From an uncultured Planctomycetales bacterium (lineage in GTDB: Bacteria; Omnitrophota; Gorgyraeia; Zapsychrales; Fredricksoniimonadaceae), in NCBI GenBank assembly GCA_964483785.1, contig CAZACW010000004.1:6794-70793 (forward strand): a stretch of 64,000 nucleotides of DNA, read 5' to 3'. The position numbers were made by a program, and so were the translations under genes. The notes beneath the pieces were generated by a model. It worked only from the letters and a program-made list of their open reading frames with translations, was not told the origin of the DNA and did not search any database. Positions 38,076 through 64,000 of this stretch are shown here, piece by piece (position 1 is the stretch's first letter; every line of letters starts with the position of its first letter).

Positions 38076-38084
38076 GGGGGCAGA

Positions 38085-48195: not shown

Positions 48196-49290
48196 TTACC
48201 TTGGGAAATGATTGATGGTGCTCAAGGATGAAGAACGGCCATGATGGGACCCAAATTTTCCCAATCCCAATGTCAAGTGCGTGCGCGTCTGAAAACGCAT
48301 AATGTCATTGATCGCCCAGGTGTTCATGTAGGGCTCGCCCATCATGGCATTCATCAGATCAAAGCTGTGGCAGACATGTTCGCGGTAAGGCAATTTGGCA
48401 TGTTTTCGGTGCATTTTATCATACGCTTTCTGATAAAAACCAAGCACCTCGGGCCTAAATAATCCCGTGGCCGGGTCCCAGAGCGTAAACTCAATCCGCT
48501 TATGTTCCGGCAGGCAGAGAAAGGCGTCCCCCCCAAACAGATAATTCGGCGGATGAAGGCTTAAGTCCATCACGCCCGGACTGATCCACTGGATGTCTTC
48601 GTTGGCATACATCATCCGCCGCAGTTCAGGACGTTTGGCCATGCTGAGATAATTTTTCTTGAAGGACGCCACGGTTTCAGGGGTCCAGGGCATGAAGGCC
48701 GCAGGCGTGATGTCGACGTGCGGGATGCCCAATGCTCTTAAAATATCCAGACCCTGCTCCATATGCTCAATTTCATGCGGATGCACCGTCATGGATGATC
48801 CACAGCCGATGCCGGCCTTGAGGCAGGCCTTGATGGTGTCAGCCAGTTTTTGATAGGACGCGGGCTTAAGGCCGCAACGGTGCCGGGCCGTCTGCTCCTG
48901 GCCGCCGTCGATGCCAAACTCCAATGACACCTTCAAACGCGCCAGTTTTTCAATGTCCTCATCATTGATCAAAAGGCCATTGGTCTGGATATGCAGGGAA
49001 ATCCCGGGAAATCGAACGCTGGCCTCTTGCATGATCCTAAAAAGGTTCTCCTTGGCCAGAAAGGCCTCGCCGCCGCTGAAAATCAAGGTGGAGGGCACGG
49101 TTGCTTCCCGCTCAAAGAGCAAAAAAAGCTGCTCGACGGCATCCAAGGAAACTTCCCGCCCCATCATGTGGCGAAAAAAGCAGTAATCGCAATGAAGATT
49201 GCAGCGCTCGGTGACATAGATCCAGGTGGAATTGACCTTGAATTTTTTAAGCGCTTTTTCTGGTGTCGATAAAATATTTGATCTTGCCAT
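48196..49290 (-). CDS. Radical SAM protein (rSAM #8), paralogous to #7.
   Basis: The product has CNLHCDYC and SGGEAFL. The start is tentatively the ATG at 49290 (MARSNILS...), which overlaps the upstream gene by 44 nt; a non-ATG start is possible. Confidence 0.65.
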   Translation of the reverse strand: MARSNILSTPEKALKKFKVNSTWIYVTERCNLHCDYCFFRHMMGREVSLDAVEQLFLLFEREATVPSTLIFSGGEAFLAKENLFRIMQEASVRFPGISLHIQTNGLLINDEDIEKLARLKVSLEFGIDGGQEQTARHRCGLKPASYQKLADTIKACLKAGIGCGSSMTVHPHEIEHMEQGLDILRALGIPHVDITPAAFMPWTPETVASFKKNYLSMAKRPELRRMMYANEDIQWISPGVMDLSLHPPNYLFGGDAFLCLPEHKRIEFTLWDPATGLFRPEVLGFYQKAYDKMHRKHAKLPYREHVCHSFDLMNAMMGEPYMNTWAINDIMRFQTRTHLTLGLGKFGSHHGRSSSLSTINHFPR

Positions 49291-50413
49291 TTGAGGTCCT
49301 TGGGACTTCCCCGGGATGGGCCCGAAGAAAAACGTGAAAGTTGATCCCCAGCCTTTGCACCAGGGCGGCTTGAACAGCGCTGGCCTTGGGCAGGGTTGCG
49401 CCGGCCACATTGATAATGACTCTATCATAATATTTCAGCGGGTGCTTATCAACCACAAAAAAGAAGCCCGGCTTGCCCAGATAATCATGAACGGCCTTGA
49501 TCAATTCCTGCTTCCAAACGACCGCCCCATTGAGCAATAGGCTCTCCTGGATGCGGCCGAGAACCTTGATGCCCAAGGACCCTTTCTGGCGCACCAGTTC
49601 CACCCTATCACCAAGACGATAACGCAAAAATGGCATGCATGTGTTGTTTAAATCGGTCACCACCAAGTCTCCCTGACCTAAAACGGACGTCTTTCCGGAG
49701 CCGTCCAATACTTCCAACAATAATCCGTCATCAAATACCTTCATATATTCATCTTGCGGCTTGATGGCGACGCTTAAAGCAGAAATTTCATTGGCGCCAT
49801 AATGGTCATGGACCTTGACCCCGGACATATGCTCCATATTCCTGCGGTATTGCGGCCACAATGGTTCGCCGCAAGCCAAGCCTATTTTTAAGGAATGACG
49901 CCGGCCTATCACGGCAAATAAATCATAAAGTTGATTGGCATAGGCGTTGACCATGTTCGGCCTTAACGTTTTGACCATTTGAGCGGCATCCATCGCCTGG
50001 GCCGGTGAAGTGATGGGGCCGAAGGGAATGACGCCGGCACCCGCAGCTTTCAGGCCTGCTTCCATCATGCGCCCCGGGCTATTTAATGCATAGGAGCACA
50101 GGTTTAAGCATAAGATGCCGGGTTTGACGCCGATACTGCGGTAGATCTTGACGAGGCGGCCCAAGTGTGACTCATACGCTTCGCGCGAATGAAGAATCAC
50201 CAGCTTCGAGGCCGTGGAACCTGAAGTGGCTATCATGTTAAAGGGTGCAGACAATCGTTGGGAACCGGCAAAACTTTTAAGCGACTCGCGATGGGAAATA
50301 GGAATGCGCTTAAAATCGTCCCACGATTTTAAGCGCAGGCGATAGCGGGCATCATGCCTGGCCCAGAGGGAACAAAGTTTCAAGACTTTTTTAAAGGACG
50401 TCCGGCTCAACAT
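49247..50413 (-). CDS. Phenylacetate-CoA ligase (PaaK)/F390 synthetase/CapK-like adenylate-forming enzyme.
   Basis: The product has the PaaK-family layout (SGSTASK... P-loop-like AMP-binding motif and a C-terminal ...GKIKY). The start is set at ATG 50413 (MLSRTSF...), 4 nt after the upstream stop. Confidence 0.65.
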   Translation of the reverse strand: MLSRTSFKKVLKLCSLWARHDARYRLRLKSWDDFKRIPISHRESLKSFAGSQRLSAPFNMIATSGSTASKLVILHSREAYESHLGRLVKIYRSIGVKPGILCLNLCSYALNSPGRMMEAGLKAAGAGVIPFGPITSPAQAMDAAQMVKTLRPNMVNAYANQLYDLFAVIGRRHSLKIGLACGEPLWPQYRRNMEHMSGVKVHDHYGANEISALSVAIKPQDEYMKVFDDGLLLEVLDGSGKTSVLGQGDLVVTDLNNTCMPFLRYRLGDRVELVRQKGSLGIKVLGRIQESLLLNGAVVWKQELIKAVHDYLGKPGFFFVVDKHPLKYYDRVIINVAGATLPKASAVQAALVQRLGINFHVFLRAHPGEVPRTSNGKIKYFIDTRKSA

Positions 50414-50417
50414 AGGT

Positions 50418-51470
50418 TCACAAGCCCGTTTCAGCCGCCTTGCACAGCAGGCAGGGGCGCCACCAGGACTTAGAAACATCCAAGATGGGCTCGAAATCTT
50501 TGCGTTCAGCCGCGATTTCCCCAAAATCCTGGGACATCAAATTCCCGAAATAAAACGGGTCTTGGGCGATGTCCAGGCCATTCACCGCGCGGTAAGGATT
50601 GTAACATCCATAGCAATCTCCATTGCCGTCAATAAATAACACCTGACGGTGCACCTGGCATGTGTAGTGACAGGTTTGGGATGAGGCATCCGATTGGGCC
50701 GGCCCATCAGACAAGCGGTTTAAGCGTTCGATCAATTTTTCCGTCTTTTGGATGAAATCCAAAATATTGGTATGATCCAGCAGGAATTTGTGTTGACGGT
50801 TGATCCGGGCCCAAAGCAGGACCTTCTTCAAGCCATGCAGATCGAACCCAAGATTAGACGGTGTTTTGATATAATTGTACACATATTGATAGGACACATA
50901 AAAACAGCGCTGTTCTGACAAGGCGCTTCCCAGCAATCGGCGCACTTTGAGAGGGAAGGAAAAAGCGTCCTTAACGGATTGTTTGGTCACAACATAATTG
51001 GTCCTTAAATTGATCCCCAAATTTTTTTCAGAAATGGCGCTGACCACATTCTTGACCAAGGCGCTGCAGCGATCAAAGTTGAACCCGGGATAAGGCGAAT
51101 GGATTTTGTGCAATCCTTGCTCATCAACGGCATTCAGGTTCACGGTCAACTGGCGCAGGCAGGGCAAAATCTCAATGATCTCCTTATCCTGAAGGGCGTT
51201 TGACAAGAGTTCGATCTCAAAACCCAGGGCGCGGGCTTTTTTAATGATCCGGGTGAATGCCGGATTGAGCGTCGGTTCGCCCCTGCCCCCTACTTCCAAG
51301 ACCCTAAACCCTTTTTCGAAAGCCTGGGCTATGACCGTGTGCCATTGTTCCTCAGTCATGGTTTCTTTTCGGCTCAACGGCTGGGCCTCTTTGACATAGC
51401 CGTACATGCAGAACCCGCAGCGGTATTGGCAGCCATCATAGAGGGAAACAAGCAGGCGTTTTTCGTTCAT
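50418..51470 (-). CDS. Radical SAM/SPASM-like protein (rSAM #9).
   Basis: The product has CQYRCGFC, GGRGEP and the C-terminal cysteines CHYTCQVH...GDCYGCYNPY...CLLC. Confidence 0.75.
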   Translation of the reverse strand: MNEKRLLVSLYDGCQYRCGFCMYGYVKEAQPLSRKETMTEEQWHTVIAQAFEKGFRVLEVGGRGEPTLNPAFTRIIKKARALGFEIELLSNALQDKEIIEILPCLRQLTVNLNAVDEQGLHKIHSPYPGFNFDRCSALVKNVVSAISEKNLGINLRTNYVVTKQSVKDAFSFPLKVRRLLGSALSEQRCFYVSYQYVYNYIKTPSNLGFDLHGLKKVLLWARINRQHKFLLDHTNILDFIQKTEKLIERLNRLSDGPAQSDASSQTCHYTCQVHRQVLFIDGNGDCYGCYNPYRAVNGLDIAQDPFYFGNLMSQDFGEIAAERKDFEPILDVSKSWWRPCLLCKAAETGL

Positions 51471-51533: not shown

Positions 51534-52895
51534 TTAAAAATCAAAATATATGAACGCCCTGGCCCCGTCGATGGACAGGACCTTGCTTAAAATCATCAGC
51601 CCGATCGACCCAGCGACGATCAGCGCCCCCGGAAGCTTCTTGGCGGCCCTGATCTCTAAAGATAAACGGTCCCAAGGATGGGCCAGGAAAGCCAGGATGA
51701 TCAATAGGACAGGAAATAATGTCATTGAAAATAAAGAAAAGCCCCCCCATTGGGAAAACCCGCCCAGCACATGTTTCAGCTGTCCCCAATCCCTGGACCT
51801 AAAGAGCATCCACGCCAAAGCCACCGCATGAAAGGTGATGAGCTTAGCCAGCCACAAAGGCATTTTAACCGATGGCCATAGGCGGGAAAAAACGCGCTCC
51901 ACGACCAAATAAAGGCCATGGCAAATTCCCCAAAGCACGAACATCCATGAGGCCCCGTGCCAAAGACCGCCTAAGGCCATGGTGACCATGATATTCAAAA
52001 GCCTCCGGCCAAAGCCCCGCCGGTTGCCTCCCAACGGAATATACAGGTAATCCTTGAGCCAACGCGAAAGCGTGATGTGCCATCGCCGCCAAAAATCCCT
52101 GACAGAGCGCGCGGCATACGGCCGGTTGAAATTCAAAGGAAGGCGGATGCCCATCATGAACGCCAGCCCGTAGGCCATATCCACATAGCCGCTGAAATCG
52201 CAATAAATCTGGACGGCAAAACCATAAAAGGTGAATAAACTCTGATAGAAATTCAATGAGTCCTGCGCGCCGTAAAACCTGTCCACGTAAAATCCGATTT
52301 GATCGGCAAACACCATCTTCTTAAGCATCCCGATGGCAAAAAGCGAAAGGCCCAATTTAAAAAACCTCTGTTGAACAGCCAAATGCCCCAATTGGGGCAA
52401 AAGTTCCCTGGCCCGCATAATGGGGCCGGCGATCAGATGGGGAAAGAAAGAGACGAAAACGCAATAGCGCAAGAATCCTTGTTCAGGCTGGATCAGTTTC
52501 TTTCGGACATCGATCAAATACGAAGCAACTGTAAAGGTGATGAAAGAAATCCCGATGGGCAAGGCCCAACGGCCATGGCTGGCCCATTGTTCCGCCCAGC
52601 GATCAGAAACGTTTTGAAGAATGAAAGAAGCATATTTATAAAAAATCAGAGGCGAGAAGACCAGCAGGAGTGTTGCCGCAAATTGCCAACGCGGCATACG
52701 CGGCACTTTAAAAGCGCCATAATAGCTTAAAAGGACAAGGGCAAGCAGCAGGAATATATAGAAAGGGCACCACCAGGCGTAAAAAATACAGCTGGCTAAA
52801 AATACCGCCCCTAACCGCCATGGGGCCGGAACCATGCTCCATAGGAACATGAAGACCGCAAAAAAAATGAGGAAGGTATTGGAATAAAAGAGCAT
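51534..52895 (-). CDS. MBOAT-family membrane-bound O-acyltransferase (AlgI/DltB-like), copy 1.
   Basis: The 453-aa polytopic membrane protein has the MBOAT His region (...RRWHITLSRWLKDYLYIPLGG...). Confidence 0.85.
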   Translation of the reverse strand: MLFYSNTFLIFFAVFMFLWSMVPAPWRLGAVFLASCIFYAWWCPFYIFLLLALVLLSYYGAFKVPRMPRWQFAATLLLVFSPLIFYKYASFILQNVSDRWAEQWASHGRWALPIGISFITFTVASYLIDVRKKLIQPEQGFLRYCVFVSFFPHLIAGPIMRARELLPQLGHLAVQQRFFKLGLSLFAIGMLKKMVFADQIGFYVDRFYGAQDSLNFYQSLFTFYGFAVQIYCDFSGYVDMAYGLAFMMGIRLPLNFNRPYAARSVRDFWRRWHITLSRWLKDYLYIPLGGNRRGFGRRLLNIMVTMALGGLWHGASWMFVLWGICHGLYLVVERVFSRLWPSVKMPLWLAKLITFHAVALAWMLFRSRDWGQLKHVLGGFSQWGGFSLFSMTLFPVLLIILAFLAHPWDRLSLEIRAAKKLPGALIVAGSIGLMILSKVLSIDGARAFIYFDF

Positions 52896-52901
52896 GGCTG
52901 A

Positions 52902-53873
52902 TCAATGCCTCGATAAACTTGCTTTCACCGCCGGCCCAATGGCCTCGGCCATGATCTGCAGGCCTTGGGCATTATAATGAGGGTCTGAGGGCATAATCCA
53001 TAATTGCGCTTGAGGGACAAGCTGCAATGACGGGGTAAAATCAACCGTCATCCAGCCCAACCGGCTCCCTAAATTTTTAATCTTGTCATATTCCCTCTTA
53101 TAAGGAAAATCCGCCAAATCGTGGCTGTCCGGCGTGACCGCCAAAATCACCTTAAACCCGTCTTCTTTCGCCATGGCATCCAATCTCTGGAAAGCGGCGA
53201 CCATGTCAAGATATCCCTTGAAATCGTCCTTGTATAAATTCTTGTAATAGCCAATCCGGCCTTTCCTGCTTGCGGTCCCCATTTGAAACATGTCCAGGGC
53301 CTCCACCCATTTAACCGCCAACTCACTGTGCCGCAGTAAAAAATTGCCTCCCTCAGGCCCCAGGACCTTGGCGTCGCTGATGAAAAAATGCACGATCACC
53401 AGATCCGGCTTCAAGGCCCTTAGCCTGGTCTCAAAAAGATGCACATACCGCACCGCATTGTAATTGCCGATGCCGCCGTTAAGGACTTCTGCCTCCCGGC
53501 CCATTTCCTTTTGAAGATCAGCGGGCAGGGTGCTGTTTTCCTCGACCCCCCATCCTAAGGTATTGGAACTGCCCAAAAATAGGACCCTTAAATGATGCCG
53601 CTGTCCCTGCGTCTGGATCTCAGGCCCGCGCAGGCCGAAACTATTGATGCGGACCATGACGCCTTCAAGTTTGGCAGAGCTCCCCGGCCTGTGCACATGA
53701 CCCAACACAGGATCAGGGCTTATCATCTTAAGCAATTTGGCATAGCGCCACATTTCAATGCTGTAGTCTGATTGGTCCAGGTTTTTCAAGCGCAGAAGCC
53801 CCTCGGTGAGGATGAGGGCCGCCAGCAAAACCGCGAAAAAAACCGCCGCTTCTTTAATTAATCTGATAAACAA
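52902..53873 (-). CDS. SGNH/GDSL hydrolase-like protein (AlgJ/AlgX-type acetylation partner), copy 1.
   Basis: The product has an N-terminal TM helix and the LFLGSSNTLGWGV SGNH block I. The tracked start is a TTG. Confidence 0.6.
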   Translation of the reverse strand: MFIRLIKEAAVFFAVLLAALILTEGLLRLKNLDQSDYSIEMWRYAKLLKMISPDPVLGHVHRPGSSAKLEGVMVRINSFGLRGPEIQTQGQRHHLRVLFLGSSNTLGWGVEENSTLPADLQKEMGREAEVLNGGIGNYNAVRYVHLFETRLRALKPDLVIVHFFISDAKVLGPEGGNFLLRHSELAVKWVEALDMFQMGTASRKGRIGYYKNLYKDDFKGYLDMVAAFQRLDAMAKEDGFKVILAVTPDSHDLADFPYKREYDKIKNLGSRLGWMTVDFTPSLQLVPQAQLWIMPSDPHYNAQGLQIMAEAIGPAVKASLSRH

Positions 53874-53985
53874 ATCCGCCCTCCGGGGCGCTCTTTGTCA
53901 TGAGCGTCAGCCATAAGGTCCCGGCGCCCAAAATCAGCACCCCTATGACCCAATAGAGCCAGTATCTTTTTATAAAATCGTTCAT
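53854..53985 (-). CDS. 44-aa single-TM micro-protein (MNDFIKRYWLYWVIGVLILGAGTLWLTLMTKSAPEGGFVYQIN).
   Basis: Manual translation shows the ATG overlaps the stop of the upstream SGNH gene (ATGA). The product has a W-rich N-region plus one TM helix. It is not in the ORF track because it is under 60 aa. Confidence 0.45.
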   Translation of the reverse strand: MNDFIKRYWLYWVIGVLILGAGTLWLTLMTKSAPEGGFVYQIN

Positions 53986-54962
53986 GGCTTCAGCGGGCTT
54001 GGATATAACCCTTTTTTGATAAAATCAAAAGTGAACTCCGCGATCAACTGATGGGCCTTGCCGTTCGGGTGCGGGTCATCCGAAGCCACCCACAAATCTC
54101 CTGGCCTCTCCCATGGGGAAAACATAGAAGTGATATCCAGGACATCGATGCCGTTATTCTTTAAAAAATCCGCCATCATGCGCTGTTCTTGCTTGAAAGG
54201 ATAATGAGCCAAATCATGGAACTCCGGAATGAACACCACTTGCAATAAAATACCGTTCTTGGCACAGATGTCCCTTAACAACAGAAAGGCTTCTTTCGCG
54301 CGCGCAAGTCCCGGCCGGCCCTCCTGGTACAAATCCGCGTAATAAGTTTTATAATTTTTAGCCGGGTCCAGCCGCAATGACCAAGCATGCAGCCTTGACC
54401 AATATAAAGTCAGCAGCTGAGAATAGCCTAAAAACCACCATGATGACTTATGCTGGGTGAGCTGGACACTGTTAATGACAAAAAACATCACCACCTTGTC
54501 CGGATGGTATTGCAACCCTTTTTTAATGAAATGATGGACCTGCTGTTCGGTGGTATAATTGCCTGTCCCGGTATTGATGATCTCCGTCGGATAAATCCTG
54601 CTCAATTCCTTTTCCAGGATATCATGAAAGGTCTCTTCTTCCTTCACCCCCCATCCCAAGGTGAAGGAATCGCCTAAAAACATAATCCTTTTTTGATTGG
54701 TCCTGGCCACTAGACAATCGCGGCCGCGAAACCCGTCCGCATTGGTATGGATCATGACCCCCATCAAACGCGCCGATGCATTCGGCTTATGGACATGGTC
54801 AATGAAAGGGTCCGGGTCATCCTGTTTAAGGCCCATCGCGTATTTTGTCATCTCGACATCATAGACCAAATAATGATTGAGGCAGGCCCTTGTCAGCAGT
54901 TCGAGGGCCAGGAAGCACAAGACAATTGCGATGAACGGCTGGAGGCCTAATTTAGAGAACAT
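53982..54962 (-). CDS. SGNH/GDSL hydrolase-like protein, copy 2.
   Basis: The product has an N-terminal TM helix and the MFLGDSFTLGWGV block I. It is paralogous to 52902..53873. Confidence 0.65.
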   Translation of the reverse strand: MFSKLGLQPFIAIVLCFLALELLTRACLNHYLVYDVEMTKYAMGLKQDDPDPFIDHVHKPNASARLMGVMIHTNADGFRGRDCLVARTNQKRIMFLGDSFTLGWGVKEEETFHDILEKELSRIYPTEIINTGTGNYTTEQQVHHFIKKGLQYHPDKVVMFFVINSVQLTQHKSSWWFLGYSQLLTLYWSRLHAWSLRLDPAKNYKTYYADLYQEGRPGLARAKEAFLLLRDICAKNGILLQVVFIPEFHDLAHYPFKQEQRMMADFLKNNGIDVLDITSMFSPWERPGDLWVASDDPHPNGKAHQLIAEFTFDFIKKGLYPSPLKP

Positions 54963-55996
54963 GGGTTCCCTTCTTGTTTCAACATACGTTCCAAGACCTC
55001 GTTCCTGACATGGCTCTCATCATAGAAATCCTTCTCATCAAGGCCGCAGACCTCCGAATTAAAGGAGCCTTTGATTTTGACATTCAATCTGCGCGCAAGA
55101 GCGCGGAAATCATTCTCGATACCGGCCAGGTCCAGGGCCCCGGGGTTGCGCTGGGGATCCAGAAAATAATGATAAAGTATGGGGTGAAAAGGAGGCACAT
55201 AACAGGTGACCTGCACGTGACGCGAAGTTAAATAACCGACGAATTTCTCTAAAATGTCCTCCAAATTCCGGCTGAACTTCAGCTGCCTCATCAATGGCGA
55301 TGCCGGCCCATGGTCCATGTCCCTCACCGCCGCCCTTCGGCTTTGCGGCACGTCCCTTAGGTAATAGGCCCTGTCCCATAAATACCGGCCATCCTTGAAA
55401 AACATTTTTTCGTCGTTTCTCTGCATCCATCGGTCCACTGCCATTTGAAAACGATGAAAAGACAAAATACGCTGCCATGAGGGCGGAATCAGCGGCCCCC
55501 TGATTTCTTCCCGGCTCACCCCTAAACGGTCCATCATGCCATAGACATCCTGTTTGATGAAGAGCCAATCCGGCGGCATGTCGGGAGAAAGGACCAGTTG
55601 CGCATTGAGAACAAATATAATCTTCTTAGGGAGCATGTTCTTTTGTTCGTACTCCTGGACAAGGCCCATATAATCGGCAAGCACAGCCCCCAATAAAGAA
55701 TGATTCAAGACCTTATCCGGGGCAAAAATGTTCTCGCCGATCCATGACGTATTGCTTGACCCCAGCACCATAATATCAGGAGCAGAGCTTAAATGTTCAA
55801 TCCAATATTTGAAGAGCAGCCGGTCGTTGATGGGACGGTTAAAGGAAACATTAAACCCGTCAGCCAACAGGCTCGCATAACGGCGTTCATCGCTCCCTGC
55901 CGGATCGGCCCCTAAAGGCAAAACCGCCTGAGGATCCATGGCTATGTTCACCGCTGCCACCAACAACAGAACCGGGACAAAGCCAATCAGTTTCAT
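54947..55996 (-). CDS. DltD-like SGNH-related protein.
   Basis: The product has the signal/TM segment MKLIGFVPVLLLVAAV and the MVLGSSNTSW block. Its size and position right after an MBOAT gene mirror DltB-DltD. The start is set at ATG 55996; the tracked start at 56056 would overlap the MBOAT. Confidence 0.55.
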   Translation of the reverse strand: MKLIGFVPVLLLVAAVNIAMDPQAVLPLGADPAGSDERRYASLLADGFNVSFNRPINDRLLFKYWIEHLSSAPDIMVLGSSNTSWIGENIFAPDKVLNHSLLGAVLADYMGLVQEYEQKNMLPKKIIFVLNAQLVLSPDMPPDWLFIKQDVYGMMDRLGVSREEIRGPLIPPSWQRILSFHRFQMAVDRWMQRNDEKMFFKDGRYLWDRAYYLRDVPQSRRAAVRDMDHGPASPLMRQLKFSRNLEDILEKFVGYLTSRHVQVTCYVPPFHPILYHYFLDPQRNPGALDLAGIENDFRALARRLNVKIKGSFNSEVCGLDEKDFYDESHVRNEVLERMLKQEGNPCSLN

Positions 55997-56021
55997 GAAC
56001 AGACGCCTTGCGCTTTGCCTT

Positions 56022-57395
56022 TCAGAACTGGAAATAGTAAAATGGATTTTGTCCATGGTCTCCCCAAAACAGGATGCTTAAAACAAGCCCGTAATAGTAC
56101 GCCCATCGCACCCAAGGCCTGTCCTTGGCAAAGATAAAATGCCCGCCGGTATTCTGCAGCAATAATTCTAAAAAGATCAGGGCAATGATCAATTCGATGG
56201 AAAGGACCCACCATTTGATATTAAAACCGAAAGACCTGTAACTCTCTGCCCAGGCACCTTTTCCCCATCCGCGTCCTAAATGGCCTACGATAAAAAGGGC
56301 GTCCGCCATGTCCCTGGCCCTTAAAAAAATGTTGGAAAAGCCGACTAAAGCGAGCGTCAAAAACACCTGGGCTGTCCGGACGAATACACTGCTTTTAAGA
56401 CCGGATTTTCTGCCGGGGCTCATGATCACATATAGTCCGTTGAGCACGCCCCAGACCATCAGCGTCGGGGAGGAGCGCTGCCCCAAGGCGCTGATCACAA
56501 AGACCACAATAATGTTCAAACACCATCGCCATGCAGGACATCGATGACCTCCTAAGGGCAGATAGACATAGTCTTTCAGCCATTGCGCATAGGTGACGCT
56601 CCAGCGCCGCCACCATTCAGCGGCCGAAGTGGAAAACAAGGGGAAATTGAAATTATCCGGCAAGCGAAAACCCAGGACTTTCGCCGCCCCTACAGCCATG
56701 TCGCAATATCCGGAAAAATCGCAATATAACTGCACCATGAAAAACAAGGCCGCCACAATGAATTGGGGCCCTTGATGACTGGGCACATCCCTGAAAACTT
56801 CATCCACCAAGACGGCCAAACGGTCCGCAATGACAACTTTTTTAAACAAGCCCCAGGCCATGAGCTTCAAGCCGTCGGCAATCCTCTGATAATCCACCTC
56901 ATGCCTCTCATGAAATTGAGGGATCAAGCGGTAGGACTTTTCCAAAGGCCCGGCCGCCAGTTGGGGAAAAAACATCACATAAAGGGCATAAATCCCCCCA
57001 TGCCGTTCTGCCCTCTGGCGTCCCCTGTAGACTTCAATGACATAAGAAAGGTTCTGCATCACATGGAAGGTCAGGCCGACCGGTATGATCCAATTGAGCA
57101 TGGACAGATTGAAATATTTGAAAACGAACAAAAAACTGCACGTGAGGATGATGCTTAGGACCAGATACGGCTTGGCGTTGCGATTTTTGAGGCGGGCCCC
57201 TTCGATCCAAAGGCCTGCCCAAAAGTTGATGATGATCATCAAAAGCAGAACCAGCAGATACGGCGGGAAAAACCACATGTAAAAGACGCAGCTGGCGGCC
57301 AGCAGCAGGGCCCAGCGCCAGGGGTGAGGGCACAAAAAATAAGACACGGACACAGCGAAGAAAAAAAACAAAAATGGGGCGGAATTAAAAAACAT
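56022..57395 (-). CDS. MBOAT-family O-acyltransferase (DltB/AlgI-like), copy 2.
   Basis: The polytopic product has the MBOAT His region (WRRWSVTYAQWLKDYVYLPLGG). The start is set at ATG 57395 (MFFNSAPFLFFFF...). Confidence 0.8.
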   Translation of the reverse strand: MFFNSAPFLFFFFAVSVSYFLCPHPWRWALLLAASCVFYMWFFPPYLLVLLLMIIINFWAGLWIEGARLKNRNAKPYLVLSIILTCSFLFVFKYFNLSMLNWIIPVGLTFHVMQNLSYVIEVYRGRQRAERHGGIYALYVMFFPQLAAGPLEKSYRLIPQFHERHEVDYQRIADGLKLMAWGLFKKVVIADRLAVLVDEVFRDVPSHQGPQFIVAALFFMVQLYCDFSGYCDMAVGAAKVLGFRLPDNFNFPLFSTSAAEWWRRWSVTYAQWLKDYVYLPLGGHRCPAWRWCLNIIVVFVISALGQRSSPTLMVWGVLNGLYVIMSPGRKSGLKSSVFVRTAQVFLTLALVGFSNIFLRARDMADALFIVGHLGRGWGKGAWAESYRSFGFNIKWWVLSIELIIALIFLELLLQNTGGHFIFAKDRPWVRWAYYYGLVLSILFWGDHGQNPFYYFQF

Positions 57396-57460
57396 GGGCA
57401 AGCTCCAAGGCCCTGCAGAAATCATGTTCACAAATTTTTGATAATACATTACTATAAGGC

Positions 57461-58375
57461 ATGGTGTTGCCCCCACCAACCATTATTCTTTTTGTGCTCA
57501 TCCTCCTGATAGGCATCTTCACCACCATCACGGACCTCAAAAGCCAGAAAATCTACAATGGCCATCTCCTGGCCGGTGCCATCTTAGGGCTCGGGGCCAT
57601 GATTTACGCCCTCATGTTGCAGGACCGGCAGGTCCTATCCCATGTCATCAACGGCGCGGTTGCTTTTATCCTCGGCTTCTTGCTGCACAGGTCCGCCGTC
57701 TGGAAAGGAGGCGACGCCAAATTATTCACGCTGTACGCCTTCCTCATGCCGGAGCCGGTGTACAATCAAGTCCCTTGCCCGCCGGTCGTAAACCTTTTTG
57801 CCTGTTCTTTTATTTCTGCGATGCTCATCCTCTTCCCATTTTTTATCAAAGATCTCATCATGCACCATCGGGCCATCGTTCTTGACCTGACCCGGCCCGT
57901 CAAGGTCCAGGCCTCCTTCAGGGCCATCGGAAGGACCGTATGCATATCCTGGATGCTCTTCCCGGTCTATTATCTTGCAAGAATGGCCAACCCTGTTATG
58001 ATCTTGACTGTAACCTACCTGATTTTCAACAAAGGCTATTCCGTCAAAAGTGAAGCCAAAAAACATTATATCGTGGATTTTTTAAAAAAGGAGTTCGTCG
58101 GGCTGTCGATCGGCATGGTCCTGGGATTGGGCCTGCGCCTTTGGCTGTCGCCCCATTCCCTGACCTTGCGCTCGCTGGCTGTGTTCTTGGCCATGATCAG
58201 CGTCTCAACGGCCATCTCGACGTGCATTCATACCGCCTTGCAGCATTTTAAGAATTACCATGAGCGCGTATCTTTTGCCCCCCTCCTTTTGTTCGGATGC
58301 TTGTTAAGTTATACCCCTTTCTTGACAATATTGACGCATTGGACTGCCCAATGGAACGTCCTCCTTTACCATTAG
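57461..58375 (+). CDS. A24-family (prepilin peptidase-like, CpaA/TadV-type) aspartic peptidase membrane protein with an extended C-terminal TM region.
   Basis: The first catalytic Asp context (TITDLKSQKIYN) and the second Asp motif (WKGGDAKLF, cf. GxGDxKLL) are both present. The 304-aa product is about twice the size of CpaA. Confidence 0.6.
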   Translation: MVLPPPTIILFVLILLIGIFTTITDLKSQKIYNGHLLAGAILGLGAMIYALMLQDRQVLSHVINGAVAFILGFLLHRSAVWKGGDAKLFTLYAFLMPEPVYNQVPCPPVVNLFACSFISAMLILFPFFIKDLIMHHRAIVLDLTRPVKVQASFRAIGRTVCISWMLFPVYYLARMANPVMILTVTYLIFNKGYSVKSEAKKHYIVDFLKKEFVGLSIGMVLGLGLRLWLSPHSLTLRSLAVFLAMISVSTAISTCIHTALQHFKNYHERVSFAPLLLFGCLLSYTPFLTILTHWTAQWNVLLYH

Positions 58376-59340
58376 AGATCATCATCGAGATCACCGGCAA
58401 ATGCAGGCTCTTATGCCCTTATTGCACAGGCCCGCGGACCGCCGATGTTCCTTTGCGTGAGATCCAGGAAACCATGGATGAGGCCGGCCGTCTTGGGATC
58501 GGCGCCGTGCGCATCACCGGAGGGGAACCGCTGATCCATCCGGACATCCAAAAAATTTTGGCCTATGCCAAATCCAAAAAATTCAAGGTCCTTTTAAATA
58601 CCGCCGCTGAAAACATCAGCCCCTCCCTGATGAAGTCGATCATCGCCAATGTCGATATAGCCCTCATCTCTGTGCAGGGGCATGATGAGGCATCCAACCT
58701 TGCCTACACCCGCACGCGGCATCCCTTTCTGGATAAAATCAAGAACATATTCCTTTTAAAATCCTATCTGCCGACCCTGTGGCTCGCCACGGTCATCACG
58801 CCTCTCATGGCCGGGTCATTTAAAAAATTCATGCCGCTGGTCAAAACGATCAATCCAGCGGCATGGACCTTGCTGCGCCCGATCAGCGCCATGAATGACG
58901 ATTTAAAACAAATGGATGCGGGTTTTTACCGCCGCCTGTCGCTTCAGATCCTCAAGGCCCGCCGAGAACAGGTCAATGTTTTTATTGCGAACCCCATCCC
59001 CTTATGCTTGACGGGGAACTTGAATATAGGCCGGGAAATTTTTTTCGGCGCCAGTTTCGATGACGGCCATGTCCGCATCGTGCGCAGCGCACAAGGGTAT
59101 TTCAAGCCGAGCTATTTTGTAGAACGGGATTTGGGCCGCAGCATCCAGGAAGCTTGGGACCATCCCTTCTTGAAAGAACTTGACCGCACTGATTATCTGC
59201 CCCAGGAATGCCAACGCTGCCCGGTCCATGAGATTTGCCGCGGCGGCTGCAGGGCCATGGCCGAGAAGGCGTTCCAAACTGCCCTGGCGCCGGATCCTTT
59301 GTTCGATTCAAAGCTGGCCCAAAAAGCCCTGTCAAAATAA
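58351..59340 (+). CDS. Radical SAM/SPASM-like protein (rSAM #10).
   Basis: The product has CRLLCPYC, TGGEPLI and the C-terminal cysteines CQRCPVHEICRGGC. The start is set at ATG 58351, which overlaps the peptidase gene by 25 nt. Confidence 0.7.
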   Translation: MERPPLPLEIIIEITGKCRLLCPYCTGPRTADVPLREIQETMDEAGRLGIGAVRITGGEPLIHPDIQKILAYAKSKKFKVLLNTAAENISPSLMKSIIANVDIALISVQGHDEASNLAYTRTRHPFLDKIKNIFLLKSYLPTLWLATVITPLMAGSFKKFMPLVKTINPAAWTLLRPISAMNDDLKQMDAGFYRRLSLQILKARREQVNVFIANPIPLCLTGNLNIGREIFFGASFDDGHVRIVRSAQGYFKPSYFVERDLGRSIQEAWDHPFLKELDRTDYLPQECQRCPVHEICRGGCRAMAEKAFQTALAPDPLFDSKLAQKALSK

Positions 59341-59490
59341 AGCGTAAATGAACGGCGCGCTGGCTGAGCCCTGGGTCAAAACAATGATCAGCCCCATCAA
59401 GACCATGATCAAAACGATGGGCAGCAGCCATAACCGCTTTCTGACTGTTAAAAACTGCCAAAATTCTTTTAAAACACTTAATTTGGACAT
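59332..59490 (-). CDS. SxtK-like (DUF5989-type) 52-aa membrane micro-protein.
   Basis: Manual translation gives MSKLSVLKEFWQFLTVRKRLWLLPIVLIMVLMGLIIVLTQGSASAPFIYALF. This pattern is typical of the small proteins that follow NodU/CmcH carbamoyltransferases. It is not in the ORF track because it is under 60 aa. Confidence 0.6.
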   Translation of the reverse strand: MSKLSVLKEFWQFLTVRKRLWLLPIVLIMVLMGLIIVLTQGSASAPFIYALF

Positions 59491-59499
59491 TGATGGACC

Positions 59500-59769
59500 C
59501 TAAAATTGGTTTAAATACCGCTGCTTAACGTCGGACGATGCCTCAACCGGGCTCCAGTAAGAAGGCCTTCGATCATCCCAGGTTCTTTCCATAAAATCCT
59601 TGCCCCTAAGGCGAAGCAGGAGGGCTATGGGTGTCAACACCATCAAATATAGGATGGTCAGCAATACAAAACTGATTACCGCCTGCACCCATCCTGCCGC
59701 CTTGATTGCGGCATCCAAAATATATTTTAAGTCGCCCGAAAAATTTTCCTGAAATGGCCTTTTCATCAA
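59500..59769 (-). CDS. SxtJ-like small membrane protein.
   Basis: The 89-aa product has one TM helix and lies immediately downstream of the carbamoyltransferase with a 4-nt overlap. It follows the known carbamoyltransferase + SxtJ + SxtK trio arrangement. Confidence 0.5.
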   Translation of the reverse strand: MMKRPFQENFSGDLKYILDAAIKAAGWVQAVISFVLLTILYLMVLTPIALLLRLRGKDFMERTWDDRRPSYWSPVEASSDVKQRYLNQF

Positions 59770-61520
59770 TCCAGCTCCACGGCGATTAACTCACGGTTAT
59801 AGCTCCCCTGGCCGGGCTGCTTTTGGCGGTCAAAAAGACACTGCCCCACCAAAAGATAATCCATTTCCGTGCTCATAAAACAGCGGTAACTGTCCAGGCT
59901 TGAGCAGACCACGGGTTCTCCCCTGACGTTAAATGAGGTGTTGATCAAAACAGCACAGCCTGTCAGTTGCTCAAAAGCTTTCAGGATGCTGTAAAAAAAC
60001 GGATGATCATGCTCATCCACGGTCTGGACCCTGGCGGAATGGTCCACATGGGTCACCGCCGGAATTTGCTCGCCCTTCACAGGGGCCGTCAAAAGCATGT
60101 AGGGACTCTCCTGTTGGAGGTCAAAATAATCCCGGCAGCGTTCCTTTAGCACCACCGGAGCAAACGGACGAAAAGGCTCCCGAAACTTGATCTTCAGGTT
60201 CAATTTCGCCGCCATCGCCTCATCGCGCGGGTCTGCGATGATGCTGCGCGACCCTAAGGCGCGGGGGCCGAATTCCATCCTGCCGCGGCAAATGCCCACC
60301 ACCTTCTGCTCATTAAGGAGGCCGGCTATTCTTTGCGGCAGCTTTTCTTCATCCACATGCTCATAGACCCAGCCGTTTTGATCGGCCATCGTTCGGATAT
60401 CCTCTTGCCGGGGCCCCAACAAAGACCCCTGCTGAAGATCGTGAACTCCGTCGGCAAAGCGGGGCCTCTCTAAAAAATGGTGCCAGGCCAGCATGGCGGC
60501 GCCCAGGGCGCCGCCGGCATCGCCGGAGGCCGGCTGGATCCAAATCTTTTCAAAACCGGCCTCCTTTAAAATTTTAGCATTGGCCACGCAATTAAGGGCC
60601 GCGCCTCCGGCCAAGCAGAGATTTTTTGCTCCAGTCAGCGCCCTGGCATGCCCGGCCATTTTCAGCATCACCTCCTCGGCGATCTCCTGGATGGAGCGCG
60701 CCACATCCATGTGAAACTGTTCAATCTTTTCTTCGGGCCGTCGCGCCGGGTTTCCCAAAAGCCCTTCGAAAGCGCTGTTGATCATGGTGAGCCCGCAGGG
60801 GAATCCAAAATATGTCACGTTCAGGCGAAAGGACCCGTCCTCCTTGATATCGATCAAATGCCGCCGGATCAAATCCGCATAGACAGGACGGCCGTAGGGT
60901 GCCAGGCCCATCAATTTATATTCCCCGGAATTGACGCGAAAACCGACGTAATAGGTGAAGGCCGAATACAAAAGTCCCAGCGAATGCGGAAATTTCATCT
61001 CTTGAAGCAAGGTCATTTTATTCCCCCGGCCCTCACCGATGCTGGCCGTTGTCCATTCTCCCACTCCGTCCAAGGTCAGGACCGCGGCCTCCTTAAAAGG
61101 AGACGGGAAAAACGCGGAGGCCGCGTGGGACTCATGGTGGAGAGGGAATAAAACCGGTTTGCGGACGCCCAAGGCGGAAAGGATTTCTTCTTTTAAAAAA
61201 ATCCTTTCTTTAAGCCAAAGAGGCATGGCTTTGACAAACGAGGACAACCCCAAGGGTGCAAAGGACAGGTAGGTCAGTAAAAGGCGTTCAAATTTTAAAA
61301 ACGGCTTTTCATAAAACGCCACATAATCGATTTCGTCCGTGCCGATGCCCGCTTCTTTCAGGCAGTAGTCAATCGCCCTTCGGCAAAAAGCGGCATCATG
61401 TTTTTTGCGGGAAAACCGCTCCTCCTGGGCCGCGGCCACAATAGCGCCGTCTTTAAGCAGACACGCGGCGCTGTCATGATAGTATGCGGAAATGCCTAAT
61501 ATATAAACAGGCTTAATCAT
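59766..61520 (-). CDS. NodU/CmcH/TobZ-family carbamoyltransferase.
   Basis: The 584-aa product begins MIKPVYILGISAYYHDSAACLL..., a Kae1/ASKHA-like N-domain, and has a YrdC-like C-domain. Confidence 0.85.
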   Translation of the reverse strand: MIKPVYILGISAYYHDSAACLLKDGAIVAAAQEERFSRKKHDAAFCRRAIDYCLKEAGIGTDEIDYVAFYEKPFLKFERLLLTYLSFAPLGLSSFVKAMPLWLKERIFLKEEILSALGVRKPVLFPLHHESHAASAFFPSPFKEAAVLTLDGVGEWTTASIGEGRGNKMTLLQEMKFPHSLGLLYSAFTYYVGFRVNSGEYKLMGLAPYGRPVYADLIRRHLIDIKEDGSFRLNVTYFGFPCGLTMINSAFEGLLGNPARRPEEKIEQFHMDVARSIQEIAEEVMLKMAGHARALTGAKNLCLAGGAALNCVANAKILKEAGFEKIWIQPASGDAGGALGAAMLAWHHFLERPRFADGVHDLQQGSLLGPRQEDIRTMADQNGWVYEHVDEEKLPQRIAGLLNEQKVVGICRGRMEFGPRALGSRSIIADPRDEAMAAKLNLKIKFREPFRPFAPVVLKERCRDYFDLQQESPYMLLTAPVKGEQIPAVTHVDHSARVQTVDEHDHPFFYSILKAFEQLTGCAVLINTSFNVRGEPVVCSSLDSYRCFMSTEMDYLLVGQCLFDRQKQPGQGSYNRELIAVELD

Positions 61521-62743
61521 GGCTTGGCATGATTCAGCTGTTGGACCAACACCTTGTCGAAAAATTCCCTGCCGCCAAACTCTGCCTTAAGCAGGGGCCT
61601 GCCCTGGGGCGGACTGGCAGCGGCTTTTTGAACAGCTGATTTTAAATGTGCGGCGGTCAATGCCTGGATGGGAATGATCTCGGCCCCGATCCTTTCTTTT
61701 AACAAGGCCGCGCGGGCAAGCTGCTCCTGGATTGATTTGTCCCCATAACCGGCAAAAGGGACCACGACGGATTTTTTATGATATTTCAGCAGCATCACCG
61801 AAGTGTGGTAGGAGGCCAGGGAAACGCAAACATCGCTTTGCGCGATCAAACCTTCATAGTCACGGACCGCTCTCATCAAAAGAAGATTATGGGTTTTCTT
61901 TTGGGCGGCCAGCTTAGTAAAATAACGCCATTCCTGTAAGGTGGTCGAGGGGCCTGCCACCCCCGTCCAAAAATACTCATTGCCCAAAAGCTCGCTGGCC
62001 CGGATCGCCTGCGCGATCACCTTAGGATAGACCGCCCCGCCCCCGCGCAGCACAGCCACCTTGCAGGCGCCCCGGGGAATGGATGGCCGGGCCACAGGGC
62101 CGCCTTCATCCTGACGGATGACATTCTGTTGAGGCAGCAGATAGCCTGCAAAGGTGATTTTGGAGGCATGCCGGTCAAAAAAATCCAGATAGGCCCGCCG
62201 GACAGAAAAAGGCAGCTGTCGGGCCATATATTCTTTTTCCGACGGCGGGGAAAAAATAATGATCCGTTGGTATAAACCCAGGATCTTCTCCCTCCATCCA
62301 TGGCTGGCTCCGGTCAATAACGGATAGCCGGCCACGGCCCACAACAAGGCCCCTTGGCGAAACGCTTGAACAAGCGGCGGAATCAGGCTGTGGCGGCATT
62401 CTTCATTGCCCAAGGGAAAAAACTCTGTCACAAACAAGTCCGGCTTGATACGCCTCAATAGGTCCAGGTGCATGCCACAGTTCATGAGCGCATCCGCCGG
62501 CGCCTTCGCAAGGAGATGTCTAAAATGCCGGCGGTCAGCCATGGGCCCTGGACTCGCCTGCACCCGTCCCCATTCCTGAAGGCGGGCCTTGACCTGCCGT
62601 CTGCCCCTTTGGATAAAAAAAAGATCCCCGCCAGGGAATCTTTTTTTAAAGACTTCGCTCATGGCCAAGACGCGGGACGTATGGCCTAAACTATCATAAT
62701 GGGAAAATGAAATGACCGCCCTGGGGCACAGATTACTGGCCAT
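61517..62743 (-). CDS. GT-B fold glycosyltransferase (MurG/GT28-like), copy 2, paralogous to 41946..43157.
   Basis: The product is collinear with copy 1 (ISFSHYDSLGHTSRVLA / KPDLFVTEFFPLG / VLRGGGAVYPKVI / VCVSLASYHTSVML...VVVPF). The start is set at ATG 62743 (MASNLCPR...). Confidence 0.6.
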   Translation of the reverse strand: MASNLCPRAVISFSHYDSLGHTSRVLAMSEVFKKRFPGGDLFFIQRGRRQVKARLQEWGRVQASPGPMADRRHFRHLLAKAPADALMNCGMHLDLLRRIKPDLFVTEFFPLGNEECRHSLIPPLVQAFRQGALLWAVAGYPLLTGASHGWREKILGLYQRIIIFSPPSEKEYMARQLPFSVRRAYLDFFDRHASKITFAGYLLPQQNVIRQDEGGPVARPSIPRGACKVAVLRGGGAVYPKVIAQAIRASELLGNEYFWTGVAGPSTTLQEWRYFTKLAAQKKTHNLLLMRAVRDYEGLIAQSDVCVSLASYHTSVMLLKYHKKSVVVPFAGYGDKSIQEQLARAALLKERIGAEIIPIQALTAAHLKSAVQKAAASPPQGRPLLKAEFGGREFFDKVLVQQLNHAKP

Positions 62744-63488
62744 ATTGGGCCAGTGGACGGGGCGCTTTGGGGGCCTTGCAGGCATCGCGCATCTCGGCGT
62801 TGGCAATGCGCTGGCATTGTCCGTCCAGCCAGAACGTAAAATCCTTCTCTTCATCTGCGCGGGTCCTTTGGCTGGCTAATAGGCGGCAGCCGGACATGTC
62901 CATATACCAATTATCGTTCCAAGCGGGGCCGTAAGGGCCGACAAAATCCTTGATATATTTCTGGCAGGCACCGGCATTACCCGCAAAAGCATATGTAAAA
63001 GCTGTCCCTTCGACCCAGCCTGATTCACTGCAGTCGGTAAAAATCTTCATCATGTCTTTTCTGGTCCGCTCCCCGGGGGATTGGACCATATGGCACAACC
63101 CATTATTCCCGGCCTTGTGCTGAGCATCACTCATGGTCCCCCAAAAAGTCTTGAGGCATTCCATCGGCTGGCGGTCCCCTTGTGCGCTGCAGGCATTGGC
63201 AATACAGGACCAGGCCTTGACCCAGGCCTTTTCTTTCGCATCACTGTCGCAATTCCCCTGGCAGCCTCCCGCATTTCCCTTGGTCTTGTCAAAGGCGTCC
63301 AGATACAAATAATCTATGGGATTTCGATTCGGCTGATTTTGAGGAAGCAGGCTCATGGGCGGTGCGGCCGGGTCCTGATTGTTTTGCTGGGCCCATACGC
63401 TCTTGGCATCGGCCGTGGCCAAGGCCAGGCTTAAGACCAGCCATGAAATCTTTTTCAAATGACATCCGTTCACGGCAACCTCACGCAA
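62733..63488 (-). CDS. Secreted Cys-rich hypothetical protein.
   Basis: The signal peptide (K)KISWLVLSLALATADA is followed by about 16 Cys. The likely true start is the TTG at 63458 (MKKISW...). Confidence 0.5.
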   Translation of the reverse strand: MREVAVNGCHLKKISWLVLSLALATADAKSVWAQQNNQDPAAPPMSLLPQNQPNRNPIDYLYLDAFDKTKGNAGGCQGNCDSDAKEKAWVKAWSCIANACSAQGDRQPMECLKTFWGTMSDAQHKAGNNGLCHMVQSPGERTRKDMMKIFTDCSESGWVEGTAFTYAFAGNAGACQKYIKDFVGPYGPAWNDNWYMDMSGCRLLASQRTRADEEKDFTFWLDGQCQRIANAEMRDACKAPKAPRPLAQYGQ

Positions 63489-63495
63489 TCAAACT

Positions 63496-63771
63496 TCAAT
63501 AAGAAGTGTGTGTGGCGACATTCGTATGGTTCACGCTCCCGCCCCCTAAGCCAAGGCAGGGCCCGCCGGCGCTGACGACATTGGTATGGGTTTGGGTGGA
63601 ACCGTTGTCCGCGATTGACCCCACCACGCCCAGCGCCGCGACCGTTGACAGCCCGACCTTCAGAATCGTCTCCTTACTGACAAAGCCGTCCTCATCCTTC
63701 ATCAACGCGCCCAGGCTCTTGGTCAGGGCCGGCTTCTTGGCGGCGGTCTTACCTTTGTTCTTCCTTTTCAT
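63496..63771 (-). CDS. Small secreted/ membrane-anchored hypothetical protein with a Gly-rich C-terminus.
   Basis: The start is set at ATG 63771 (MKRKNKGKTAAKK...) with an upstream aaggag SD. A hydrophobic segment VGLSTVAALGVVG is present. The product is 91 aa long. Confidence 0.45.
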   Translation of the reverse strand: MKRKNKGKTAAKKPALTKSLGALMKDEDGFVSKETILKVGLSTVAALGVVGSIADNGSTQTHTNVVSAGGPCLGLGGGSVNHTNVATHTSY

Positions 63772-64000
63772 GAGGGACTCCTTGATTGGTAAAATCCTGA
63801 CGGGTCCAGCGATGAAACACCTGCGCATAGGAGGGGTTCTCCAGCAAATAGGCAAACACGGTCCGAAACTGGTGCTTCAAAATCTGCAGGGACCGCGCGC
63901 CGCCCTGAGGGATCACATTGCCTTCCACGGCGTAATTGACCACGGGATCATAGCCCATCCACGGGCTGTAAACACTGCGGTCATGCCACAGGTCCGAACA
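63749..64000 (-). CDS. Hypothetical protein, 3' end only; the gene continues beyond the window end.
   Basis: An open frame runs to the window edge on the minus strand (...PWMGYDPVVNYAVEGNVIPQGGARSLQILKHQFRTVFAYLLENPSYAQVFHRWTRQDFTNQGVPHEKEEQR*). Confidence 0.4.
   Translation of the reverse strand, partial: CSDLWHDRSVYSPWMGYDPVVNYAVEGNVIPQGGARSLQILKHQFRTVFAYLLENPSYAQVFHRWTRQDFTNQGVPHEKEEQR

Follow-up and report, generated by a model that had tools for sequence, protein, structure and literature searches.

The His-Xaa-Ser (HXS) system, which comprises HxsA, HxsB, HxsC, and HxsD, is an antiphage system, and 99.7% of the described HXS systems are found in Pseudomonadota (PMC13128918). In the one system of this kind that has been studied, the antiphage HXS of enterobacteria, HxsA is N-terminally processed and exported after a modification that depends on radical S-adenosylmethionine (rSAM) enzymes, whereby the protease and the export route are unknown (PMC13128918). 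NCBIfam models already exist for HxsA3, HxsB, and HxsD. Prepilin peptidases of the A24 family are known from TadV/CpaA with the Flp prepilins of the Tad pilus (a type IVc filament), from PilD/GspO with type IVa pilins and pseudopilins of type II secretion systems, and from the archaeal enzymes FlaK/EppA. Here, we analyzed a stretch of 64,000 nucleotides (the window) from a genome of the Omnitrophota (assembly GCA_964483785.1, contig CAZACW010000004.1, positions 6,794–70,793), in which a gene for an A24-family peptidase overlaps a gene for an rSAM/SPASM enzyme and lies about 5 kb from the gene of a 91-amino acid (aa) HxsA3-like precursor and an HxsB-type gene. The Omnitrophota are a widespread and mostly uncultivated phylum with very small cells that are thought to be host-dependent. 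We consider it rather probable that the 304-aa A24 protein serves as dedicated leader peptidase in a conserved module of the Omnitrophota which matures a small His-motif peptide, namely the product of the 91-aa open reading frame (ORF).

The peptidase and its coupled radical-SAM gene

The genes on which the argument rests are the following (nt, nucleotides).

57461–58375, plus strand: A24-family (GxGD) intramembrane aspartic peptidase, 304 aa, peptidase-only
58351–59340, plus strand: rSAM/SPASM enzyme, 329 aa from the methionine at 58351, overlapping the peptidase gene by 25 nt, which couples the two translationally
63496–63771, minus strand: 91-aa HxsA3-like precursor, candidate substrate of the peptidase (listed as ORF 63496–63855)
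63749–64000, minus strand: 3' end of an HxsB-type rSAM/SPASM maturase gene (477 aa in full), which runs off the window

The first-pass annotation of the window, which was made from the sequence alone, had described the 304-aa protein as an A24-like protease with both catalytic Asp residues, with about 130 extra residues of transmembrane helices, and with a 25-nt overlap with the following rSAM/SPASM gene. The family assignment holds, since the Pfam model Peptidase_A24 (PF01478) matches residues 13–122 with 33 bits at a gathering score of 26.5, and both catalytic residues are present: D25 lies within the motif TITDLKSQKIYN (codon 57533–57535) and D85 within WKGGDAKLF (codon 57713–57715). In an alignment of 27 peptidase homologues D25, D85, and the stretch G83-G84-D85-A-K-L-F are invariant, and the two Asp residues are still invariant after more distant bacterial and two archaeal relatives have been added (27 + 8 sequences). 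The Lys and Arg residues that flank both Asp residues would fit a cytoplasmic location of the active site. No N-terminal Zn-binding/methyltransferase domain of the PilD type was found; residue 13 already belongs to the A24 domain, and neither Pfam nor NCBIfam shows a further domain. The enzyme shares the GxGD aspartic mechanism with PilD/GspO but, unlike these, carries no N-terminal Zn-finger/methyltransferase domain. In this it is like TadV/CpaA and the archaeal FlaK/EppA, which are peptidase-only A24 enzymes as well, and the spacing of about 60 residues from Asp to Asp is also that of FlaK/EppA.

A search of 5.8 billion proteins yielded 58 full-length homologues of the peptidase, nearly all of 283–311 aa and with a query coverage of 88–98%, and every one of them that carries an organism name comes from Candidatus Omnitrophota/Omnitrophica. 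Most of the homologues have a precomputed A24 match, and several bear the Joint Genome Institute (JGI) label “Flp pilus assembly protein protease CpaA”. No NCBIfam model recognizes the peptidase. About 180 residues follow the Pfam domain, and they are conserved equally to the domain itself. An AlphaFold2 model of the protein (mean pLDDT, predicted local distance difference test, 86.9) predicts approximately 11 helices, the last of which bear the conserved sequence FAPLLF.GC.LSYTPF, which we take to be similar to the PFGPF helix at the C-terminus of canonical A24 enzymes. Should this likeness hold, the extra part is better seen as an insertion of about 140 residues (about 125–265) than as a C-terminal extension. 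The additional helices that had been put at about 130 residues are thus found again with 140–180 residues, and with about 300 aa and these extra helices the peptidase differs from TadV/CpaA: it is a subfamily of its own and has almost twice the usual CpaA length.

The overlap with the rSAM/SPASM gene was confirmed for a start at 58351, which is favored by the relatives; the other ATG at 58297 would give a 347-aa ORF and a 79-nt overlap. The 25-nt overlap between peptidase and rSAM gene is seen in nine contigs, and at least four others have a 4-nt overlap. This recurrence is far beyond chance and clearly non-random. The coupled enzyme matches Pfam Radical_SAM with 59 bits and contains a CX3CX2C motif at residue 36 as well as a SPASM-type CX2CX5CX3C motif at residue 305 (numbering of the 347-aa ORF), whereby Pfam SPASM gave no match at E<0.1. 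An NCBIfam scan detected no recognizable N-terminal RiPP recognition element (RRE; RiPP, ribosomally synthesized and post-translationally modified peptide) in the enzyme of this genome. HxsC is not among its listed NCBIfam matches (best 25 of 55 families), nor was a second HxsB/C-like gene found in the module of related loci. In comparison to the described HXS systems, HxsC is missing and an unrelated SPASM rSAM enzyme is coupled to the peptidase instead. We also considered whether the coupled enzyme is one more paralogue of the rSAM cluster at 38–51 kb of the window; this was rejected, as BLASTP showed it not to be close to the other ten rSAM enzymes examined.

A His-motif precursor beside HxsB and HxsD

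The first-pass annotation had stated that no pilin, secretin, or Tad/Cpa genes are nearby. For Tad/Cpa genes and a secretin this stands, as none were seen, but for the pilin it does not: the 91-aa ORF at 63496–63771 on the minus strand is prepilin-like. Its start is the ATG at 63771, as shown by homologues in related loci, and an identical 91-aa protein is present in a public collection (P0059). The precursor consists of a Lys-rich leader ending in LMKDEDG29, followed by F30-VSKE, a hydrophobic helix (approximately residues 36–53), a variable region, and His motifs. Among 120 precursor homologues the stretch L20–G48 (LGELMKDEDGFVSKETILKVGLSTVAALG) is almost invariant and the stretch after it is variable; H62xN64, C79, H82-T-N84, and the C-terminal H88-[TS]-S-Y91 are invariant again. 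The match of the precursor to the NCBIfam model HxsA3 is weak but full-length (22.3 bits at a cutoff of 65). When the profile of the precursor family was compared with 1.84 billion cluster representatives, 88 clusters of small proteins were matched, which show the same N-terminal anatomy together with unmistakable His-Xaa-Ser repeats ending in HSSY. One further match of this profile, a protein of 4220 aa (P0182) with 33 partial matches, has the appearance of noise from low-complexity repeats and was disregarded.

Among 259 members of the precursor family, Gly at -1 is present in 100%, Lys or Arg at +4 in 99%, and Lys at +9 in 93%, and the median leader length is 29 residues. RefSeq-annotated Flp type IVb pilins (RFLKDESG|ATAIEYGLI) have the same leader end, F-[LMI]-K-D-E-[DS]-G, and an hhalign comparison of the precursor family with a RefSeq Flp pilin aligned the Gly and the Glu at +5 (P 1.6e-4, probability 51%). 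We scanned small ORFs for class III signals, defined as [GAS]|[FMLIVYA]xxxE with a hydrophobic 16-mer and a basic leader, and the precursor was the sole match in the 64-kb window and in six related loci of 20 kb. In its small size (<100 aa), its leader end, the acidic residue at +5, and the hydrophobic helix the precursor resembles the Flp prepilins. Unlike these, it has no EY motif, it carries C-terminal His-x-Asn/Ser motifs, and it is encoded together with the rSAM maturation genes HxsB and HxsD, which sets it apart from the Tad pilus. With the substrates of PilD/GspO it shares Gly at -1 and Phe at +1, whereas its leader has 29 aa instead of 5–7 aa, an FTLIE consensus is absent, and the peptide would be modified by rSAM enzymes.

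The stop of the HxsB-type gene overlaps the precursor start by 23 nt. A public Logan contig of 2.75 kb (L027), which is 100% identical to positions 63039–64000 of the window and extends 1789 nt further, gives the remainder of this gene and shows that an HxsD-like gene adjoins it beyond the window edge. This contig was retrieved by the 91-aa ORF only; neither the peptidase nor the 445-aa glycosyltransferase described below led to a contig when looked up by exact sequence. The HxsB-type enzyme of this genome, read via L027, reaches 359.5 bits to TIGR03978 (cutoff 370), with the next family at 108 bits, and orthologues lie above the cutoff (377.9 in L002; 403 and 449 for the archaeal copies described below). 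To the HxsD model TIGR03976 (cutoff 50) the protein of this genome scores 25 bits, the bacterial copies 25–32, and the archaeal copy in L025 51.2, and a precomputed Pfam HxsD match is present on HxsD-like proteins.

Synteny in Omnitrophota and beyond

In loci that were found with the peptidase as query, tblastn revealed a module which consists of the A24 and the rSAM gene on the plus strand and, on the minus strand, of a GT28-like glycosyltransferase gene, one to three genes for Cys-rich proteins, the precursor, HxsB, and HxsD. A second set of loci was seeded with the precursor instead of the peptidase and provides the less biased test. Here, the rSAM and A24 genes were present in all ten metagenome contigs that extend at least 4 kb beyond the precursor. 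Thus, homologous peptidase–rSAM pairs and a conserved small ORF accompanying them, for which the first-pass annotation had proposed to look, both recur in related loci.

In ten precursor-seeded contigs a PilB/PilC block lies upstream of HxsD. In several genomes this region contains, on the same strand before HxsD and with gaps of less than about 110 nt, genes for a coiled-coil protein, a PilC/GspF-class platform protein, an MshEN protein, two PilB/GspE-class ATPases, and a further MshEN protein. The operon is located at 9696–16405 in L001, with equivalents in L006, L008, L031, L037, L039, and L041; its stand-alone MshEN proteins are of the cyclic di-GMP-binding type, and the coiled-coil protein is lipoprotein-like with about 328 aa. 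The proteins of the motor operon are 74–89% identical between metagenome-assembled genomes (MAGs), whereas the A24 peptidases of the same MAGs share only about 45–56%, which suggests a core rather than an accessory function. Another A24 gene or a conventional pilin was not found in the PilB/PilC operon of the relatives. Likewise, tadZ, tadA, tadB, tadC, and rcpA were not found in the window, and the relatives carry PilB/GspE- and PilC/GspF-class genes but no TadA/B/C, TadZ, or RcpA. An ATPase of the PilB/GspE class with an MshEN domain and a platform of the PilC/GspF class are features of the PilD/GspO systems, and the motor of the relatives is in this respect unlike that of the Tad pilus, of which no secretin, TadZ, or RcpA was seen either. 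The first-pass annotation would have been refuted by a complete tad/cpa locus just outside the window, which would have made the peptidase an ordinary CpaA. The findings come near to this case without matching it: the neighbors outside the window are HxsB and HxsD, followed in relatives by genes of the PilB/PilC class.

In one Omnitrophota MAG (L001/L010, positions 1–9600) there is a second, partly degraded copy of the segment with a full A24 gene, a 40-codon rSAM fragment, a Cys-rich gene, and a precursor gene; it adjoins a DDE transposase gene, a sign that the module was duplicated or rearranged recently. In L015 (10001–15311) the module appears to be decaying, with a frameshifted rSAM gene, a fragmented glycosyltransferase gene, three Cys-rich paralogues, and no precursor match; on a separate contig (L022), the MAG of L015 encodes an A24 paralogue with 33% identity.

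The link between peptidase and Hxs genes is also seen outside the clade. In L066 an A24-like gene with 25% identity and an orthologue of the coupled rSAM gene with 37% identity overlap by 4 nt, and a precursor with true His-Xaa-Ser repeats is encoded 1.3 kb away from this pair; in L068 the distance between an A24-like gene and the precursor is 2.6 kb. Two archaeal MAGs carry related sets. L026 (Woesearchaeota) has HxsD-like, HxsB, and A24-like genes in this order and a convergent precursor (...FIEDENG|RMTKADVVKAGALIALGLASS...), and L025 has HxsD, HxsB, a precursor (...FMLDEDG|RIDKHK...), and an A24-like gene. Both archaea are of the DPANN type, and related sets of A24, HxsB, and precursor thus occur in the domain of FlaK/EppA. 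In L025 (9986–11647) the A24-like domain forms a fusion with a C-terminal domain of about 300 aa, whose repeats weakly resemble those of squalene/oxidosqualene cyclases (27 bits), which is an unusual architecture for a prepilin-type peptidase. PilB/PilC genes were not found near the module in L066, L067, L068, L025, and L026; therefore, the link between peptidase and Hxs genes is older and more general, and the motor is a trait of the clade of the window.

Overall, the locus resembles the HXS systems in that it combines an HxsB-like rSAM/SPASM enzyme (359–449 bits to TIGR03978 among the copies scored) and an HxsD-like small protein with a precursor that carries His-Xaa-Ser-type motifs, for which N-terminal processing and export are proposed here from the sequence. 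It is unlike them in its 91-aa precursor, which has no peptidoglycan-binding domain, in its hosts, which are Omnitrophota or DPANN archaea, and in the presence of an A24 peptidase, a glycosyltransferase, a Cys-rich protein, and, in the relatives, a PilB/PilC motor, none of which occurs in the described HXS systems.

The remaining genes between the coupled rSAM gene and the precursor are the following.

59332–59490, minus strand: DUF5989 protein (Pfam)
59500–59769, minus strand: SxtJ-like protein (Pfam)
59766–61520, minus strand: carbamoyltransferase (Pfam)
61517–62854, minus strand: GT28-like glycosyltransferase p445, true start probably downstream of the first ATG
62733–63473, minus strand: secreted Cys-rich protein p251 with a Sec-type signal peptide (translation, synteny)

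The first three genes (59332–61520), a trio known as SxtI/J/K in saxitoxin clusters, sit between the coupled rSAM gene and the glycosyltransferase gene in this genome only; in the related loci the trio is absent from this position, and the rSAM and glycosyltransferase genes are directly convergent. The match of p445 to Pfam Glyco_tran_28_C is weak (E 0.017), but the orthologues of L002 and L004 lie above the threshold, and the GT28-like gene is syntenic in nearly all related loci with 43–59% identity. The Cys-rich gene is present in one to three tandem copies in the relatives. Pfam and NCBIfam scans gave no family match for p251, and it is not detectably homologous to the Cys-rich neighbor in the archaeal locus.

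On the other side of the peptidase, 1–30 kb of the window contain housekeeping genes, and the region of 33–57 kb harbors nine further rSAM genes, genes for a DegT aminotransferase, an AMP-binding enzyme, and a GT28-like glycosyltransferase, two MBOAT genes, two genes for GDSL-type esterases, and one for a fiber-like protein with an S74 chaperone domain. The nine rSAM genes, several of them of the SPASM type, form a dense cluster at 37251–51470 together with Asn-synthase-like, DUF2334/deacetylase-like, GT28-like, DegT, and AMP-binding genes. A block of DegT, rSAM343, rSAM410, AMP-binding, and rSAM350 genes is conserved with 57–74% identity in many relatives, where it precedes the peptidase by a few kb, and a homologue of the AMP-binding gene also adjoins the archaeal precursor in L026. 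The 572-aa protein encoded at 33459–35177 (minus strand) has a C-terminal Peptidase_S74 (endosialidase chaperone) domain and, after its signal peptide, the motif TLTTYYPAPSGNY. This motif is shared with proteins of about 180 aa that are encoded directly upstream of HxsD in distant Omnitrophota (L066, 6445–7011; L068, 4338–4880; 42% identity over 50 aa), and the proteins bearing it may be another conserved component of the system. At 51534–57479 (minus strand) two MBOAT (DltB/AlgI-like) genes are interleaved with two GDSL/SGNH esterase-like genes and the gene of a 369-aa unknown protein, an arrangement that resembles a duplication of O-acyltransferase modules. In the ORF list the upstream MBOAT gene runs into the start of the peptidase gene, but it probably begins only about 80 nt inward, at MFFNSAPF.

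Proposed maturation pathway and alternatives

The first-pass annotation had suggested a leader-bearing or membrane-inserted peptide as substrate and a RiPP-like or modified-pilin-like product, and this suggestion gains support from the Flp-like leader, the adjacency of HxsB and HxsD, and the synteny. From these data we infer a pathway in which the precursor would be modified in the cytoplasm on its C-terminal HxN/HxS motifs by the HxsB-type rSAM enzyme with HxsD. The coupled rSAM/SPASM enzyme probably also modifies the precursor and would then be the functional counterpart of the absent HxsC; being cytoplasmic, the rSAM enzymes would have to work on the C-terminal part prior to its passage across the membrane. 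Next, the precursor may insert into the membrane with its hydrophobic helix, whereupon the A24 peptidase would remove the basic/acidic leader of 29 residues on the cytoplasmic side by a cut behind the invariant Gly (KDEDG|FVSKE), in the manner of TadV/CpaA and the Flp prepilins. The resulting product would have 62 residues and an N-terminal helix and would be similar in size to a mature Flp pilin. It would probably be passed on to the PilB/PilC-class motor whose genes lie beside HxsD in the relatives. As a pilin-like subunit it could then be polymerized or expelled, and the adjacent GT28-like enzyme may glycosylate it. The peptidase and the pilin-like ORF lie in the window, and the ATPase and platform genes in at least ten related contigs. 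In the clade of the window the precursor is the only pilin-like gene in the operon with the two PilB-like genes and the PilC-like gene, and the A24 enzyme is the only peptidase encoded nearby; taken together, they would account for the four core components of a type IV filament system. It is conceivable, although this wider proposal is tentative and rather open to doubt, that Omnitrophota, and in reduced form some DPANN archaea, build an unrecognized type IV filament or secretion device from a “RiPP-pilin”, a ribosomal peptide that HxsB/HxsD and the coupled SPASM enzyme would first cross-link or modify in another way and that the dedicated long A24 enzyme would then free of its Flp-like leader.

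Several observations weigh against a pilin-like maturation by the A24 enzyme. At +5 only 78% of the 259 family members have Glu or Asp, and 13% have Lys; Pfam Flp_Fap gave no match to the precursor at E<0.1, and Tyr at +6 is absent too. The hydrophobic stretch is short (about 15–18 residues, with Lys at +9), and the AlphaFold2 model of the precursor, which was used for secondary structure only, is of low confidence (pLDDT 55). Many relatives of the precursor have an AxA-like site after the hydrophobic stretch, and therefore signal peptidase I could release the His-rich part instead. In the archaeal precursors +1 is occupied by Arg, an uncommon residue there for class III signals. The peptidase has no detectable match to the solved FlaK structure in Foldseek and PDB sequence searches, and, unlike in the FlaK/EppA systems, archaellin and archaeal pilin genes are absent. 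L067 contains an Hxs module without an A24 gene within 10 kb. As to the filament, no secretin was seen, the PilB/PilC genes are known from relatives, as the window and L027 end before the corresponding position, and they are absent from L002, L066, L067, and L068.

Some of these points would also fit another explanation, in which the A24 protein is the housekeeping prepilin peptidase of the PilB/PilC-class machine and acts on pilins encoded elsewhere, while the His-motif peptide is a Sec-exported, RiPP-like product of signal peptidase I and the genes are merely co-located in one island for envelope structures. The AxA-like sites in many family members and the non-universal Glu at +5 are in line with this, as is the fact that in many relatives the PilB/PilC-class genes share an operon with HxsD, HxsB, and the precursor. 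We regard it as unlikely, since the A24–Hxs link persists in L002, L066, L068, and the archaeal L025/L026 without PilB/PilC within 10 kb, a conventional G|FxxxE pilin was found in no examined locus, and this explanation offers no account of the Flp-like motif F[LMI]KDE[DS]G. The A24-like protein could also leave the precursor N-terminus uncut and be a clearing enzyme similar to signal peptide peptidase, or a membrane scaffold or exporter partner of the coupled rSAM enzyme, whose substrate would then be a lipid or glycan from the adjacent cluster of rSAM, aminotransferase, MBOAT, and GDSL genes. The upstream flank of the peptidase is indeed formed by the MBOAT/GDSL genes and the large rSAM/sugar-modification cluster, the peptidase has approximately 140 extra membrane-helix residues, and the coupled enzyme shows no recognizable RRE in this genome. 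However, both catalytic Asp residues are strictly conserved, it is the precursor/HxsB side and not the MBOAT/GDSL genes that is conserved in the relatives, and SPASM enzymes of this type are, judged from the NCBIfam match list, mostly peptide maturases, so that this role appears improbable.

The explanation as an ordinary CpaA/TadV of a complete Tad/Cpa pilus locus just outside the window, to which the JGI label of several homologues and the missing PilD methyltransferase domain would point, is largely refuted and retains a very small probability: HxsB and HxsD lie directly outside the window without any tad genes, the next genes in the relatives are of the PilB/GspE and PilC/GspF class and include no TadA/B/C, TadZ, or RcpA, and the peptidase belongs to its own subfamily of almost double length. 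The dedicated leader peptidase of a His-motif peptide is thus the reading that we prefer for the 304-aa protein. Full-text literature searches found no paper that links a prepilin peptidase with rSAM peptide maturation or that describes the Omnitrophota module, in agreement with the earlier remark that the pairing had not been described before.

If the preferred reading is true, the locus would join RiPP-type rSAM maturation, His-Xaa-Ser systems, and type IV filament biogenesis, which have so far been treated apart. The A24 enzyme and the motor of the relatives would be candidates for the missing protease and export route of His-Xaa-Ser-type systems, and the precursors would constitute a new substrate class for GxGD prepilin peptidases. 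For the Omnitrophota themselves, the module would provide a testable candidate for a conserved surface structure.

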